Source: a virus (Duplodnaviria; Heunggongvirae; Uroviricota; Caudoviricetes). From it: 25,579 nt of DNA. The notes under the pieces are model-generated. The model ran no database searches. It worked only from the letters and a program-made list of their open reading frames with translations, and was not told the origin of the DNA. Numbering within the stretch: position 1 is the first letter of the stretch; each line of letters starts with the position of its first letter. This document shows positions 1 to 25,579 of this stretch, one piece after another. The stretch is from the IMG/VR virus record IMGVR_UViG_2531839131_000011, one strand, 5' to 3'. A program made the position numbers and the translations under genes.

Positions 1-16
1 CCTCGGTTTACAGGAA
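1..16. other. gix-like recombination site, distal half (window starts at the site centre)
   Basis: cctcggtttacaggaa is the reverse complement of the inner half of the site at 3126-3151, with one mismatch (tgtaaa versus tgcaaa). Confidence 0.6.
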
Positions 17-961
17 ACGGTAAATCAGGCTTCTGGCGCATTACAGAAAAAACAGAACGGCGCAGATATTCCGGGAAAAGATACCTTCACCAAAAATATT
101 GGGGCCTGTCGCGCATATAGCGCATGGCTGAATATTGGTGGCGATAGTCAGGTCTGGACAACTGCGCAATTTATTTCGTGGCTGGAGAGTCAGGGGGCAT
201 TTAACCATCCTTACTGGATGTGCAAAGGCTCATGGGCTTATGCAAATAATAAGGTCATTACAGATACAGGTTGCGGAAATATTTGTCTTGCAGGTGCTGT
301 GGTGGAAGTTATTGGCACCCGCGGCGCAATGACCATACGCGTTACCACGCCGAGCACGTCCAGCGGTGGCGGAATCACTAACGCTCAATTCACTTATATT
401 AATCATGGTGATGCTTACGCTCCTGGCTGGCGACGAGACTACAACACGAAAAACCAGCAGCCTGCATTTGCTTTAGGGCAAACAGGACGCAGGGTCGCAA
501 ATGATAAAGCTGTTGGCTGGAACTGGAATAGCGGCGTTTATGATGCAGATATCAGTGGCGCATCGACATTAATCCTCCACTTTAATATGAATGCGGGGAG
601 TTGCCCTGCTGTACAGTTCCGCGTGAATTACAGAAATGGCGGTATCTTTTATCGTTCAGCGCGTGATGGTTATGGCTTTGAAGCTAACTGGTCAGAGTTT
701 TACACCACAACACGCAAACCCTCTGCGGGAGATGTTGGTGCATATACGCAGGCAGAAGGTAACTCAAGGTTTATTACAGGTATTCGCCTTGGCGGTCTGT
801 CATCTGTTCAGACATGGAATGGTCCTGGCTGGTCTGACAGGTCAGGTTATGTCGTTACTGGTTCAGTTAACGGAAACCGTGATGAATTAATTGATATAAC
901 TCAGGCAAGGCCAATTCAGTATTGCATTAATGGAACGTGGTATAACGCGGGGAGTATTTAA
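2..961 (+). CDS. S': S'v: alternative tail-fibre variable C-terminal domain, promoterless cassette (5' end is the gix crossover, no own start)
   Basis: Frame is open from window position 2. Begins [24 protein letters not shown], homologous to the Sc/Sv junction of the minus-strand S. Ends ...YCINGTWYNAGSI, like the S C-terminus ...[12 protein letters not shown]. The ORF-track start at 218 is internal. Confidence 0.75.
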   Translation, partial: LGLQETVNQASGALQKKQNGADIPGKDTFTKNIGACRAYSAWLNIGGDSQVWTTAQFISWLESQGAFNHPYWMCKGSWAYANNKVITDTGCGNICLAGAVVEVIGTRGAMTIRVTTPSTSSGGGITNAQFTYINHGDAYAPGWRRDYNTKNQQPAFALGQTGRRVANDKAVGWNWNSGVYDADISGASTLILHFNMNAGSCPAVQFRVNYRNGGIFYRSARDGYGFEANWSEFYTTTRKPSAGDVGAYTQAEGNSRFITGIRLGGLSSVQTWNGPGWSDRSGYVVTGSVNGNRDELIDITQARPIQYCINGTWYNAGSI

Positions 962-963
962 TT

Positions 964-1497
964 ATGATGCACTTAAAAAATATTACTGCTGGCAACCCTA
1001 AAACAAAAGAGCAATACCAGCTAACAAAGCAATTTAACATCAAATGGCTTTATTCAGATGATGGAAAAAACTGGTATGAGGAACAAAAGAATTTCCAGCC
1101 AGACACTTTGAAAATGGTCTATGACCATAACGGCGTTATTATTTGTATTGAAAAGGATGTTTCAGCAATTAATCCGGAAGGCGCAAGCGTCGTTGAATTA
1201 CCTGATATTACAGCAAATCGCCGGGCTGATATTTCGGGGAAATGGTTGTTCAAAGATGGCGTAGTGATAAAGCGAACTTATACCGAGGAAGAGCAGAGGC
1301 AACAAGCGGAAAATGAAAAGCAAAGCCTGTTGCAACTTGTCAGGGATAAAACCCAGCTATGGGACTCACAGCTACGGCTGGGCATCATTTCCGACGAGAA
1401 TAAACAAAAATTAACCGAGTGGATGCTCTATGCGCAGAAAGTCGAATCTACAGACCCCTCCAGCCTGCCAGTAACGTTTCCCGAACAACCAGAATGA
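964..1497 (+). CDS. U': U': alternative tail-fibre assembly chaperone (silent orientation)
   Basis: 177 aa, paralogous to the minus-strand U (MMHLKNI.AGN.KT.EQY.LTK... in both). Starts 2 nt after the S'v stop. Confidence 0.8.
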   Translation: MMHLKNITAGNPKTKEQYQLTKQFNIKWLYSDDGKNWYEEQKNFQPDTLKMVYDHNGVIICIEKDVSAINPEGASVVELPDITANRRADISGKWLFKDGVVIKRTYTEEEQRQQAENEKQSLLQLVRDKTQLWDSQLRLGIISDENKQKLTEWMLYAQKVESTDPSSLPVTFPEQPE

Positions 1498-1500
1498 GAG

Positions 1501-1527
1501 AAGGCCCGATATTGGGCCTTAATTTTT
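1501..1527 (+). terminator. Intrinsic terminator between the convergent U' and U genes
   Basis: aaggccc-gatatt-gggcctt hairpin followed by aattttt on the plus strand. On the minus strand the hairpin has no U tract. Confidence 0.5.
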
Positions 1528-2053
1528 ACTCAGGCTTTTGTGGCCATTCGGGATTTGCTGTATCCACACGGCTGACCAGAACGCTGTAGCGTTCCCATGA
1601 CTCCAGTCGTGTGCGTTCCTCATCCGTCGCCATATTCAGCCTGACAGCGCGTTCCAGTGGCTGAATAACGCTTTCAGCTTCAGAAAGCAACGCGCCCTTT
1701 TGTGATTCGGCTTGTTGTTGCTGTTCGTCTGCCGTATAAATCCGTTTAACTACAGCTCCATCCTTAAACATCCACTTTCCTGAATCATCAGCGCGGCGGT
1801 TGGCTGTTATATCGGGAACCTCAACGACGCTAAAACCTTCAGGGTTAAGCGTGGAGGCATCTTTAGTGATGGCGACAATAATATTATTTGCATCGTAAAC
1901 AATCTTTATTGTGTCTGGCTGAAAGTTTTTCACTTCCTCATACCAGTTTTTTTCGTCCTCAGAGTAAAGCCAGATGACTCCGTGCTTCTTTGTTAACTCA
2001 TACTGCTCCAGTGTTTTAGCGTTACCTGCTTTTATGTTCTTTAAGTGCATCAT
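1526..2053 (-). CDS. U: U: tail-fibre assembly chaperone (expressed orientation)
   Basis: 175 aa. ATG at 2053 is 2 nt after the S stop at 2055-2057. Tfa-like sequence. Confidence 0.85.
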
Positions 2054-2054
2054 A

Positions 2055-3647
2055 TTAAACGCTCGCTACATTATACCAAGTGCCATTTATATACTTTTGA
2101 ACTGGTCTGTAATAAACCCCCGCTATATTATCGGCAGAATTGGACCCTGTATCCTGAACATTAATACCAGATAATACATGACCTGACGGGCACTGGAAAT
2201 TCCATGTTTGCCAGTTGTTCACACCATAATATTGCTGTGAGCCAAGCCGAACATCTTTTACATATCGGGAATCTAAATTACTGAAATCAGACGGTAATAT
2301 CCGCCCAGTGATACTTATTTCTTTTTTGCTCTGTAACGTACCGTTCTGAAAGCGGAACACATGCACACCATTAGCATAAGCATCCAGCACCCCATCACCA
2401 TTTTGTTTAAACCCAGTATCGTTATCTCCTAAAACTATTGAATTTCCCCCCAGGGCATTAGCCGTTCCAATCCCCAGATTTCCGCTAAAAATGGCATTAA
2501 TACCGAATATTGAGTGAGAACAATAAAACCCTCGCCCATTGTTAAAATCCAGAATGGCTTGTGCGTTCGTGCTTTCTGTCGCGGGATTAGTTGCTCCCCA
2601 CTTATATGTTGTTTGACCGACGGTATAATCCTGAGTTGGAACAATAACCGTTAGCCCTTCTTCAGCAGAAACCCGCACAGGAAAAGCCCTGCCTTCAACG
2701 TAAAAAACGCTGCATACATCATCTTCTTTAAGGCTTGTTACAATGGAGTGGATTGCGCGCTCATTAGTCTGATACGTCGAAAAATAACCTGCCGCATATG
2801 AACCATGATCAGTCCAGCCACCAGGCATTACCATTCCATTGAATTCGCAGTTATTCATTGCGTAATCACCAGTGGCAGATGTGGTCGTTATAATCACTCT
2901 GGAAGCCAGCTCGCCAGTGCTGCCTGTGGAACGCCGGAAAATAACTGGATACCACTTTCCACCAACTGCATTAGACGGCGCATTAAATGCGTACTGCCGC
3001 ATTCCTTTTTTCTTATCCACCTCGCCTTTGCTGTAAACATTAATGTTACTCAGGAAGCGATCCTTATCAGGAATATCCGCGCCGTTCTGGTTTTTTTGTA
3101 ATGCGCCAGAAGCCAGATTTACCGTTTCCTGCAAACCGAGGTTTTGGATAAACAGCGGCTTATTGGGAATATCTGCTCCGTTCCGGTCTTTTGCCAGACG
3201 GGCATTGGCATTATCCATCGCAATTTTCACCGCTTTTGCGGTGGCTGCCAGCGTTTCACTGGGGCTGTCAGTGGCACTGGTTAGCTGAACGAGGCCTTTT
3301 TTGTTCAGGCTGGCATCCCAGATATCCAGATTTTCACGTGCTGTACGCTGTGCTGATGCCCCGGCAATTTTAATTTCGCTGAGGTTATTTTTTATCAGCA
3401 GCGCGTTATTGCTCATAATGGCTTTAATGGACAGTGCAAGCTGGTTTAATTTTGTTTTATCCGGTTGAATACCGGCTTCTTCCAGCGTGTTTAATAACTC
3501 CGCCTGCACAATATTAAACCAGTCCATACCGGGCCATGTGATAGCATTATTCCCGTCACCTTCTGAAAACCAGCGAACGATAGCACTACGCTGGGCGGAT
3601 ACGGGCGGCATGACGGTTACGCCGCTGTCGTTATCAATATAAAACAT
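2055..3647 (-). CDS. S: S: tail fibre protein (constant N-terminal part 3152-3647 fused across gix to variable part 2055-3125)
   Basis: 530 aa. Coiled-coil-like N-terminal part, C-terminal receptor-binding-like domain. The gix site lies in frame within it. Start overlaps the upstream stop (TAATG). Confidence 0.85.
3126..3151. other. gix-like Gin/Hin-family crossover site inside the S gene
   Basis: ttcctgcaaaccgaggttttggataa: two inverted 12-bp half-sites around a central 2 bp, matching the gix/hix consensus as I recall it. In the S frame it encodes FIQNLGLQE. Confidence 0.7.
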
Positions 3648-4189
3648 TAGTTATCTCCGTCATGGTAAACAAATTTATAAATCTGATGCGCGGGTTTATA
3701 TTTCTCCAGTAAACATTCCAGCGCACCCGATTCATAAACACGTAACGGCGTCAGAACATTATCCAGCACCGTTGCGTTGCGATAATTTTTAATACCGTAA
3801 ATATTGACCTGCGTAACCCACTGGCCTTCTGTGGAATCCGTCAGCCTGACGGTAAAACCGTACTGCGCAGCCAGCCATTCATAAAAGCGCCGACTCAGAT
3901 TGCCGGTCATACGCATTTTATTCGCGGCAGCCCGCCGGCGTTCTGACAGGGTGCCGTTTTCGCTTGTACAGTCCGGCAACCCCAGAAATGATTCCCACTC
4001 ACCCAGATACCAGCGGGATGTGGACGGGAAACGCTCCCGCAGCATTTGCCGCGCATCATCCGCCGCAGTGGCAATCACGTCGCTGATGGCCTGCGCCAGC
4101 GCAGATAATTTGCTGTCGGGGCTTTTATTCCAGGCAAGCCCTGACGGCAGTAATTGCAGAAAGGCCGTCTGCCAGGGTGTTACAGCCAT
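3647..4189 (-). CDS. Baseplate / fibre-attachment protein (Mu gp48-like)
   Basis: 180 aa. ATG at 4189. Sits between the baseplate J-like gene and S. Translationally coupled to S. Confidence 0.55.
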   Translation of the reverse strand: MAVTPWQTAFLQLLPSGLAWNKSPDSKLSALAQAISDVIATAADDARQMLRERFPSTSRWYLGEWESFLGLPDCTSENGTLSERRRAAANKMRMTGNLSRRFYEWLAAQYGFTVRLTDSTEGQWVTQVNIYGIKNYRNATVLDNVLTPLRVYESGALECLLEKYKPAHQIYKFVYHDGDN

Positions 4190-7411: not shown

Positions 7412-8891
7412 TAATCACCTCAATACTGACGCCACCGGGAACAAACAACGGGTTGCTGATACCGTTCCTGCGGGCCAGCCGTTGCCAGTTCCGGCTGTTT
7501 CCTGTGTAACGGTACAGGGCCACCATTGCAGGCATCGTCTCCGGCAGGCGGTGCGTTTCACTGCCCGCCAGTTGCAGCCCGCGTTTTTCCAGGTCGGCAA
7601 CAACCAGCAGACGCAGTTGTGTAAGCTGAACGCTGTCTGTCGAAAATCCCTGCTCAGATGCCGTCAGAATGACGGTATCCAGTGCAGCCCCCAGCATGGC
7701 GGCTGTTTTTCCGATATCGGACACACTTTCAAATACCGGGGGCGTGGCTGTACCACTGTCTGAAAAGGATACCTGTGAAAAGCCGCCGTCCGGGGTTATG
7801 GCAGTTAACTGTAACTGTCCCTGTGTGACGGTAGCAGATGTGCTGCTGGCCCCGCTGGCTGTGCCGGTTGTGGTGGACGGGGCATCCAGTACAGGTGCAC
7901 GGGCGGCATTATCCCTCCGGCGACTGAAATCCAGTGCCGCAGTCAGTGCCTGGCTGGCAGCTTCTGCCCGGAATGTCTGCGCCGCTGCCAGCATGACGTA
8001 GTTCAGTGTGGCAATATTTTTTTTTGCAACCGGACTGTTGTACGAGGTTGTGATTGCCCCCTGTCTGCCTGCGGTGTCGGCATGGCGACGTTCGAACCGC
8101 TGCGCCAGACGGTTCCAGGTGGAAAATGCTGTCCGGGTATCGCATAACGATGAAACGCCGGACAGCGCCCCCATCAGCGAGGAGGCCAGCATGGCAGGCT
8201 GGTTAATCAGGCTGGTCACAGAGCCTTTCATCGCAGAAAGCGATCCCATCAGACCGCTGACAGTCTGCGTAACCCCCAGATTGTCCACCGCATCACTGAT
8301 ATCATCGATAACACCGGTTACAGCTTCTATCACGGCGGTTGCCGCCGCAGTGCCATCTTTTACGGTCTGCCAGACAGAGGACAGCGTATCTCCCAGAGAA
8401 CCGGTTACAGCAACGGCCTGTGCCGGTACGACTGCACTGGTGTCTGTCTCTGCGTCCGGGGCAGTATCCTGCAACGACGGATAAACGGTAACGGTGAACG
8501 CGTAATAATTCAGTTCATCCGCTTTAGTGCGGCATTCCCATGAATCCACCATGACGTCCACAGTGCCGAAATCAGGATGTACCAGCTCACCGTTACCCGG
8601 AGCATCAAGAGCATCCATCAGCGCACCCGCTTCATCTCTGGCTGTTTCTGCGTTGCTGTTCAGAATGCAGGCGCTGAATGTACGGGAGCGAAGCTTTTTC
8701 CCCAGGTCATTGACGCCTCCGGTATCACGTAACGGGTACTCGCGTTTAACCAGGCGACGTCCGCCAGCCTGTTTTTGCTCCTCGATGACGAGAAACGGCA
8801 CGTTACGGAACGTGCCTTTGCCGGTTGTTTTCCTGCCTCCACCGGTTTTATCCCGGACAGCATTAACGGCATTTAAAGCATCTTCAAACAT
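7404..8891 (-). CDS. DNA circularization protein N-like (Mu gp43-like)
   Basis: 495 aa. ATG at 8891, 4 nt after the tape-measure stop. Synteny with Mu. Confidence 0.5.
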
Positions 8892-25428: not shown

Positions 25429-25579
25429 CACGGCTAATCCCAGCCCGGACAGCCCCCCCCAGCCAGGTCAGAGGCCAGACGAACCGGGCAAAATGTTCAG
25501 GCACCCGGCAGCTCATTATCAGCGCATCCAGACAATCAGCGGCAACACTTAAAGCAACACTGAAAACCGAGGCACAGCA

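Follow-up and report, generated by a model that had tools for sequence, protein, structure and literature searches.

Since around 1980, the G segment of phage Mu has been a textbook case of programmed DNA inversion. In Mu, the invertase Gin acts together with the host protein Fis, which is bound to an enhancer inside gin (in its 5′ part), and a central dinucleotide shared by both gix sites is required for religation after the 180-degree rotation. The C segment of P1 and P7 (Cin/cix) and the Din invertase family (Hin, Pin, Min) represent the same kind of switch; in P1 the inverted repeats are approximately 0.6 kb long. The stretch of DNA analyzed here (the window; 25,579 nt) almost certainly carries a G segment, that of an E. 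coli prophage of the Mu type (Muvirus); this invertible cassette of ~3.15 kb exchanges the part of the tail fiber that binds the receptor. Such a switch is already known, and the scientific gain is small because the G segment is textbook and sequences 99.8–100% identical are already public.

Compared with Mu, D108, and PhiR68_1, the window is 96–97% identical across 96% of its length; positions 3605–25579 (22 kb) are collinear with Mu 31500–9564 at 96.6% identity, positions 1–2118 are 92.5% and positions 3118–3700 are 98.6% identical to Mu. The earlier note had proposed a Mu/P1-type invertible segment, and the alignment indeed yields the Mu G segment itself: position 1 aligns 2 nt from its annotated boundary and lies at gixR, 3126–3151 align with gixL, and the gene layout Sc-Sv-U / U′-S′v is that of Mu, in the arrangement called G(+). 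The order of the Mu late genes together with the high identity places the sequence in Muvirus, and the prophages closest to it are found at four different E. coli loci; the transposase and the early region lie off the window. The window's right edge shows no special feature and falls within the homolog of Mu E19. The features of the segment and its surroundings are the following.

1–16, plus strand: inner part of the gin-proximal gix (Mu gixR), equal to bases 11–26 of Mu's TTATCCAAAACCTCGGTTTACAGGAA
1–88, no strand: left arm of an inverted repeat, found by repeat search; its partner is 3054–3141 (88 nt, 88% complementary)
2–961, plus strand: S′v, the alternative C-terminal region of the tail fiber, silent here; 319 codons and a stop, Pfam gp37_C
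964–1497, plus strand: U′, assembly chaperone of the silent cassette; Pfam Caudo_TAP (E=4e-36), 96.6% amino acid identity to Mu U′
1501–1520, plus strand: terminator-like GC-rich hairpin with a T-run between the convergent cassettes; consensus match only
1526–2053, minus strand: U, chaperone of the expressed cassette; Pfam Caudo_TAP (E=6e-37), 90.9% amino acid identity to Mu U
2055–3647, minus strand: S, the expressed tail-fiber gene (530 aa; open reading frame and translation), with Pfam Phage_fiber_2 in Sc
3126–3151, no strand: complete gix inside S (equivalent of Mu gixL), with one mismatch to the 26-bp gix of Mu
3647–4189, minus strand: gp48 baseplate wedge gene directly upstream of S; Pfam Phage_Mu_Gp48 (E=2e-28), collinear with Mu

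The fiber gene is split in the way known from Mu. The constant part Sc (3142–3647) lies outside the segment and the variable part Sv (2055–3137) inside, and each variable part has its own chaperone, Sv and U being encoded on the minus strand and S′v and U′ on the plus strand; gp48 adjoins S, showing the context of a Mu-type tail module. The 530-aa open reading frame bears out the proposal that the constant N-terminus of S is joined to the minus-strand variable part; its residues 1–177 are 98.3% identical to those of Mu, the remainder is 24.5% identical to Mu Sv. S′v (95.9% amino acid identity to Mu S′v) had been described as open from position 2 and devoid of its own start, which translation confirms: there is no start codon at its 5′ end, the frame stays open from position 2 until a stop codon at 959–961, with its first ATG at 218. 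U′ and U, both Caudo_TAP proteins, converge as the earlier note had it. Inversion of the segment in silico joins the N-terminus of S to S′v, as predicted there, and yields a 488-aa S′ identical to the S′ called on the public contig L006; S and S′ have the first 177 aa in common, and contigs L006 and L008 encode a 488-aa protein in which S′v follows Sc. The hairpin between the cassettes has an 8-bp stem with five GC pairs and is followed by AATTTTTACT; a terminator scan of the region gave 5 terminator-like hits versus 4.0 expected in shuffled sequence, that is, no enrichment.

Two gix sites in inverted orientation, each of 26 bp with 12-bp half-sites and a 2-bp center, delimit the segment. The one inside S reads TTCCTGCAAACC GA GGTTTTGGATAA, with the inner half-site at 3126–3137, the central GA at 3138–3139, and the outer half-site at 3140–3151; its positions 3129–3148 agree with the published native gix core CTGTAAACCGAGGTTTTGGA bar one change (PMC5175349). 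Its inner half-site has a C where Mu has a T, and both orientations are on record with this variant. Of the left site, 16 of 26 nt are in the window; positions 1–16 read CC TC GGTTTACAGGAA, where 1–2 are the final two bases of the outer half-site, 3–4 the central TC, and 5–16 the inner half-site, while the outer 10 nt, missing here, are present as TTATCTAAAA in the sister contigs L005 and L007. The central dinucleotide is thus identical at both sites, GA being the reverse complement of TC. Positions 1–16 are the reverse complement of 3126–3141 with a single mismatch (A at position 10 versus G), so the two sites and the one-base difference noted earlier are both present in the sequence; a search with this 16-mer allowing up to three mismatches returned just these two matches in 25.6 kb (0.17 expected by chance). 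Further gix-like sites within the segment were not found, neither with AAACCNNGGTTT (up to one mismatch) nor with the 16-mer (up to three mismatches), both of which matched the known sites alone; such extra sites would have pointed to multiple inversions, as in the Min system of p15B. The pattern AAASSWWSSTTT from the recCas9 paper gave no match; the center of native gix is GA, and the pattern describes evolved Gin variants. The inverted repeat of 88 nt is longer than stated in the earlier note. Its left arm codes for the 22 residues with which both variable parts begin, and the longest exact stretch common to both arms is 18 nt. That the window begins at the center of gix is right to within 2 nt, the first base lying 2 nt before the central TC; the switch was also called complete, a term that fits the invertible segment only, since the invertase gene, its enhancer, and the outer 10 nt of the left site are off the window.

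The presence of an invertase and of both orientations was examined on public contigs 99.8–100% identical to the window and not on the window itself, which lacks gin as well as the outermost 10 nt of the left site. Two of these, L005 and L007, are 99.94–99.96% identical to the window over 8.6–13.6 kb and extend leftward past position 1, through CCATTATCTAAAA into gin; the arrangement is TTATCTAAAA, a 54-nt spacer, and gin, the start of which lies 64 nt from position 1, well inside the ~1 kb upstream where an invertase gene had been anticipated. The encoded Gin has 193 aa, 190 of which (98%) are identical to Mu Gin, Ser9 included, and matches the Resolvase and HTH_7 profiles, with the catalytic serine near the N-terminus and the helix-turn-helix at the C-terminus; at the DNA level, gin of L005 differs from that of Mu by a few base changes scattered across the coding region. 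Beyond gin follow com, mom, and E. coli host DNA. By this near-identity, the molecule from which the window derives probably carried the same invertase gene next to its left site.

The expectation that both orientations would be seen proved correct among these contigs. G(+) is found in the window, L005, and L007, and G(−) in L011 (99.8% identical); the latter reads from gin through TTATCTAAAACC TC GGTTTGCAGGAA into Sv and, at the other end, from S′v through TTCCTGTAAACC GA GGTTTTGGATAA into Sc, and thus contains both reciprocal junctions, with the exchange at the center of the site. The source of these junctions is public assemblies of nearly identical phages and not the reads of the sample behind the window. 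Two single-base markers, C/T in the outer and A/G in the inner half-site, remain with their flanks, which confines the crossover to the 13 nt AAAACC TC GGTTT. Since reciprocal junctions and both orientations occur in near-identical contigs, the switch flips. Both junction types, Sc-Sv and Sc-S′v, are present within single contigs in L006 (100% identical over 13,647 nt) and L008; these “hairpin” contigs are expected to be assembly artefacts, paths through a mixed population, although true inverted duplications are conceivable.

By analogy to Mu, late transcription and translation would begin outside the segment, in Sc, and run across gix into the variable part that happens to face it; in the G(+) orientation of the window this would give S (Sc plus Sv), followed by the chaperone U. 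Gin, encoded just left of the window, would cut both gix sites at the central dinucleotide, rotate, and religate the ends, so that the segment flips (the mechanism of Gin is described in PMC3575834), and thereafter Sc would be in frame with S′v (488-aa S′), followed by U′. A lysogenic culture may thus hold both forms, and the phage released may carry one of two host ranges. Dependence on Fis and the enhancer, expression from outside the segment, and the consequences for host range are carried over from what is known of Mu and presumably apply here as well.

The position at which the window begins is a matter of its own, one not foreseen in the earlier note. Most probably, its left edge is an assembly break from a culture with mixed orientations, because the assembler could not resolve both orientations in one culture. 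G(+) and G(−) diverge exactly at AAAACCTCGG, where L010/L044 ends, 4 nt outside the start of the window, and 6 of the 71 IMG/VR occurrences of this S′v start lie at most 14 nt from a contig or stretch end inside gix. The break is not accounted for to the base, because the window starts with CCTCGG and not with AAAACCTCGG, that is, 4 nt inside the Mu-type branch point. The repeat as the sole cause of a break was rejected, the longest exact run common to its arms being those 18 nt.

It is improbable that the left edge of this real switch was caused otherwise, either by a co-resident P2-like prophage which shares S′v and U′ and so interrupts assembly like any common repeat, or by chance when the window was cut. 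In approximately 35 of the 71 IMG/VR occurrences, S′v is indeed fused to the P2-type H gene, and flanks of the P2 type (GAATACC) and of the gin side (TAAAACC) diverge at ACCTCGG, 1 nt from the window start, where three contigs end exactly. However, a shared cassette should break the assembly where near-identity ends on either side, and the contig is unbroken through S′v, U′, U, and Sv; even a break at gix due to a P2-like repeat would still arise from alternative joins at an invertase site, and a chance cut would fall within the site in about 26 of 37,000 cases. Less credible still is a locked relic, a prophage truncated at gix (e.g., by Gin-mediated deletion or rearrangement with another gix) which lost gin and is fixed in G(+): the window does lack gin and the outer half-site, its inner half-sites differ by one base, and E. 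coli genomes often have several gix-bearing prophages (up to six places per genome), which makes recombination between them conceivable, but contigs 99.8–100% identical have an intact gin 64 nt away and occur in both orientations, and several unrelated assemblies stop at almost the same base, more readily explained by an effect of assembly than by one deletion having recurred. In draft assemblies, contig ends inside gix are a recognizable sign that an inversion switch is active, and they can help to detect populations of mixed orientation as well as misassemblies of the hairpin kind.

The expressed Sv is the sole non-Mu feature, and its origin was likewise not foreseen. Positions 2344–3151 have 98.8% DNA identity to a cassette of a P2-like E. 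coli prophage; among phage isolates this Sv was not found, the best match in the phage collection being 80.7% over 66% of the query, to P2-like Peduovirus records. A non-Mu Sv on a Mu backbone is ordinary tail-fiber mosaicism. It is possible, though on balance doubtful, that a Mu lineage swapped its G(+) receptor-binding part for one otherwise present only in P2-like prophages, with gix as one edge of the exchange, and that unrelated phages could exchange host-range cassettes at the gix sites themselves, by recombination of the Gin type between prophages residing in one host. Were this so, the result would be a Mu with a host range unseen in any sequenced phage isolate. This lineage combines a Mu backbone with a fiber tip from the P2-like prophage pool, which is relevant wherever host range is to be predicted or engineered in Mu-like phages.

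The P2-like E. coli prophages (e.g., strain AH21F008, NZ_CP196263.1) share the whole gix-to-gix segment with the window, 1–2281 at 95.2% and 2344–3151 at 98.8% identity, and there, too, a serine recombinase gene adjoins one gix. In contrast to the window, their constant part is the P2-type H gene, the outer half-site is TTATCGAATACC, S′v (silent in the window) is fused to H, the invertase lies beside the cassette expressed in the window, and their copy of Sv has approximately 56 extra residues. With P1 and P7 the segment has in common the stretch S′v-U′-U at 89–94% DNA identity (window 33/38 to 2099/2109), whereas backbone and invertase gene (cin) are different. The G segment of Mu has the same position in the genome (after gp48 and, in the sister contigs, before gin-com-mom), gix matches of 26/26 or 25/26, the same logic of in-frame fusion, and identities of 98% for Gin, 98% for Sc, 96% for S′v, 97% for U′, and 91% for U. 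It differs in that the Sv expressed in the window is unrelated to that of Mu over most of its length (24.5% amino acid identity), in that the repeats of the window are 88–98 nt long at 88%, with ~29 nt of the left arm aligning to the Sv side of Mu, and in that the gin-proximal outer half-site of the sister contigs contains TTATCT instead of TTATCC, which places a TAA in the S′v frame in G(+).

The tail-fibre inversion switch that the earlier note had read from the sequence was interpreted correctly, as borne out by its G-segment anatomy and, in near-identical contigs, by a neighbouring Gin and the occurrence of both orientations; it is the already known G segment of a Mu-type prophage, lying in G(+) at the contig end. 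The window comes from a Mu-like phage, with 96-97% identity to PhiR68_1, D108 and Mu across 96% of its length; matching Mu-like prophages are found in approximately 43 complete E. coli genomes, and Mu 31500-9564 forms with window 3605-25579 a single collinear alignment (96.6%). In the annotated Mu genome the G-segment boundary lies 2 nt from the equivalent of window position 1, and upstream of it come a short spacer, gin, com and mom. The alignment to Mu proposed in the earlier note identifies the segment as that of Mu and its orientation as G(+), the constant part of the fibre gene (Sc) being joined to the variable part Sv.

Features of the invertible segment (percentages, amino acid identity to Mu)
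1-16: partial gix site, reading CC TC GGTTTACAGGAA, one mismatch away from the reverse complement of 3126-3141
2 to stop at 959-961, plus: S'v, alternative variable part, Pfam gp37_C, no ATG before 218; 95.9%
964-1497, plus: U', chaperone of S', 177 aa, Pfam Caudo_TAP; 96.6%
1501-1520: GC-rich hairpin, then T-run, between the two convergent cassettes; consensus match only
1526-2053, minus: U, chaperone of S, 175 aa, Pfam Caudo_TAP; 90.9%
2055-3647, minus: S, tail-fibre gene, 530 aa, Pfam Phage_fiber_2 in its N-terminal part; Sc 98.3%, Sv 24.5%
3126-3151: gix site inside S, reading TTCCTGCAAACC GA GGTTTTGGATAA

The two sites and convergent cassettes stand as first described, with four genes between the sites (S and U on the minus strand, U' and S'v on the plus strand), and so does the start-less S'v, open from position 2 with its first ATG no earlier than 218. 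The inverted repeat exists too, extending beyond the length first given to it: its arms, 1-88 and 3054-3141, pair at 88%, the longest exact run common to both being 18 nt. A hairpin scan found no excess of terminator-like sites over shuffled sequence.

With up to 3 mismatches, the gix 16-mer occurs at two places only in the 25.6-kb window (chance expectation, 0.17 matches), and 3129-3148 differ by one change from the published native gix core (PMC5175349). Both gix sites of Mu are one identical 26-mer, TTATCCAAAACCTCGGTTTACAGGAA; window position 1 is the 11th base of the gin-proximal gix, 2 nt ahead of the central dinucleotide. Another IMG genome, 2531839130, carries a gix centre TT, not TC (L023 14115-14140; L049 150-175), at its Sc-S'v junction and at gin-S'v junctions, and this core variant appears to be common to both of its sites; in L049, which resembles a hairpin contig, the gin-side site is present on both strands.

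Lookup of the exact S protein led to six public contigs matching the window at 99.88-100%. In two of these, L005 and L007, TTATCTAAAA lies immediately left of position 1, and beyond it come a spacer of 54 nt and a Resolvase/HTH_7 protein of 193 aa, which is identical to Mu Gin at 190/193 residues and retains Ser9; the serine invertase to be sought upstream according to the earlier note is present in this near-identical sequence, followed by com, mom and the E. coli chromosome. Both orientations are likewise on record in near-identical contigs. L005 and L007 are G(+), while in the IMG/VR contig L011 (99.8% identity to the window) the segment stands cleanly in G(-), in the order mom-com-gin, TTATCTAAAACC TC GGTTTGCAGGAA, Sv...U, U'...S'v, TTCCTGTAAACC GA GGTTTTGGATAA, Sc. 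L006 and L008 hold both junctions: to the left they run through TTATCCAAAA into a reverse-complemented copy of the window's Sc and gp48, the neighbouring baseplate wedge gene (1137 and 810 nt, 100% identical), so that the segment is entered via the Sc-Sv junction and left via the Sc-S'v junction; inverting the window computationally yields exactly the S' protein of 488 aa that is called on L006. The resulting gp48-S-U/U'-S'-gp48 palindrome (L006 13576-14784, L008 12287-13168; APYL01000119.1, APYP01000023.1), which leaves gp48 duplicated and inverted in annotation, is most likely a misassembly across a mixed G(+)/G(-) population.

Two natural single-base markers, one at position 6 of the outer half-sites (C or T), the other within the inner half-sites (A or G), keep to their own flanks in every junction, which confines the exchange to 13 nt, AAAACC TC GGTTT, in line with cutting at the central dinucleotide. 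The single-base mismatch between the sites, observed previously, is real and is no bar to inversion, since both orientations are on record.

Directly seen are how the segment is built, that its fusions are in frame, that an intact Gin lies beside the site in the same lineage, and that both orientations occur with reciprocal junctions. In Mu, each gix is bound by Gin dimers, the synaptic tetramer is activated by enhancer-bound Fis, Ser9 becomes covalently linked at staggered cuts in the site centre, and one dimer rotates by 180 degrees before the ends are rejoined (PMC3575834 and papers cited there). Inversion in this lineage would proceed likewise, by Gin acting at gix, activation by Fis and enhancer, central cuts, rotation and religation. 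By analogy to classical Mu genetics, expression of S/U or S'/U' would be driven from outside the segment, and switching between them would alter host range.

The outer half-site just left of position 1 (L005 13648-13657, and L007) is TTATCTAAAACC versus TTATCCAAAACC in Mu. The gin-proximal outer half-site of this lineage reads TTATCT, giving the S'v frame ATT ATC TAA in G(+); Mu, in contrast, has CAA there, its frame being open with an ATG 24 nt upstream. The in-frame TAA directly before S'v thus closes the silent cassette to read-through from upstream.

The repeat, whose arms share exact runs of at most 18 nt, would not by itself halt a modern assembler, nor would it generate the recombinant junctions. 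Outward from S'v, G(+) and G(-) are identical as far as the C/T marker and diverge there; an assembler given both must therefore halt at AAAACCTCGG, exactly where L010/L044 terminates. A 42-mer from the S'v start occurs 71 times in IMG/VR, adjoining a gin-like gene (29), fused to a P2-type H gene (about 35) or to Mu Sc (5), or with another flank (1); for the remaining six, a contig or stored stretch ends no more than 14 nt away, these ends reading ACCTCGG (three), CTCGG, AAAACCTCGG and the full site. The window begins 4 nt inward of the Mu-type branch point and 1 nt inward of its P2-type counterpart; for this left edge we infer an assembly break from a mixed-orientation culture, the exact offset not being accounted for. 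L009 (Logan DRR481255_7875), from the same phage, ends at window 1923, inside U and not at gix, within a 76%-identical U/U' inverted repeat (1893-1977 versus 1040-1124).

Elsewhere, the Mu E19 homologue (minus strand; a small membrane protein) contains a run of eight C (25453-25460) that is one base longer than in the closest prophage, JCKP02, and shifts the frame; either the extra C is a sequencing error in the homopolymer or the frameshift is genuine. The closest Mu-like prophages (right ends of L002, L004, L005 and L007) occupy four different E. coli loci, within yidA, within nrdE, beside yjfL and beside the ecp operon, as expected for near-random Mu transposition.

On sequence comparison the invertible segment is a mosaic. 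The stretch 1-2280, which covers S'v, U', U and the last 75 Sv codons, is nearest to other Mu-like prophages (96.6% to FDAARGOS_1058), and 2344-3151 are 98.8% identical to a P2-like prophage cassette, for example in E. coli AH21F008, where the same gix-to-gix block is joined to a P2-type H gene with the invertase on the opposite side. Relative to the P2-like Sv, about 56 residues are missing from that of the window (window 2281-2344 versus 8281-8513 of the P2-like prophage version, L003); the two are otherwise 96-99% identical. The last 75 Sv codons are conserved jointly with U in Mu-like and P2-like versions, which points to joint transfer of fibre tip and chaperone. This Sv is absent from the isolates of the phage collection (best match 80.7% over 66% of the query), and none of the complete E. 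coli genomes has this exact pairing of it with the Mu backbone. A less likely reading is that gix sites act as the points at which unrelated prophages swap host-range cassettes. P1, P7 and D6 have the S'v-U'-U stretch in common with the window (89-94%), and the difference in Sv reflects the well-known modular swapping of fibre tips among relatives of Mu, P1 and P2, not a new kind of element.
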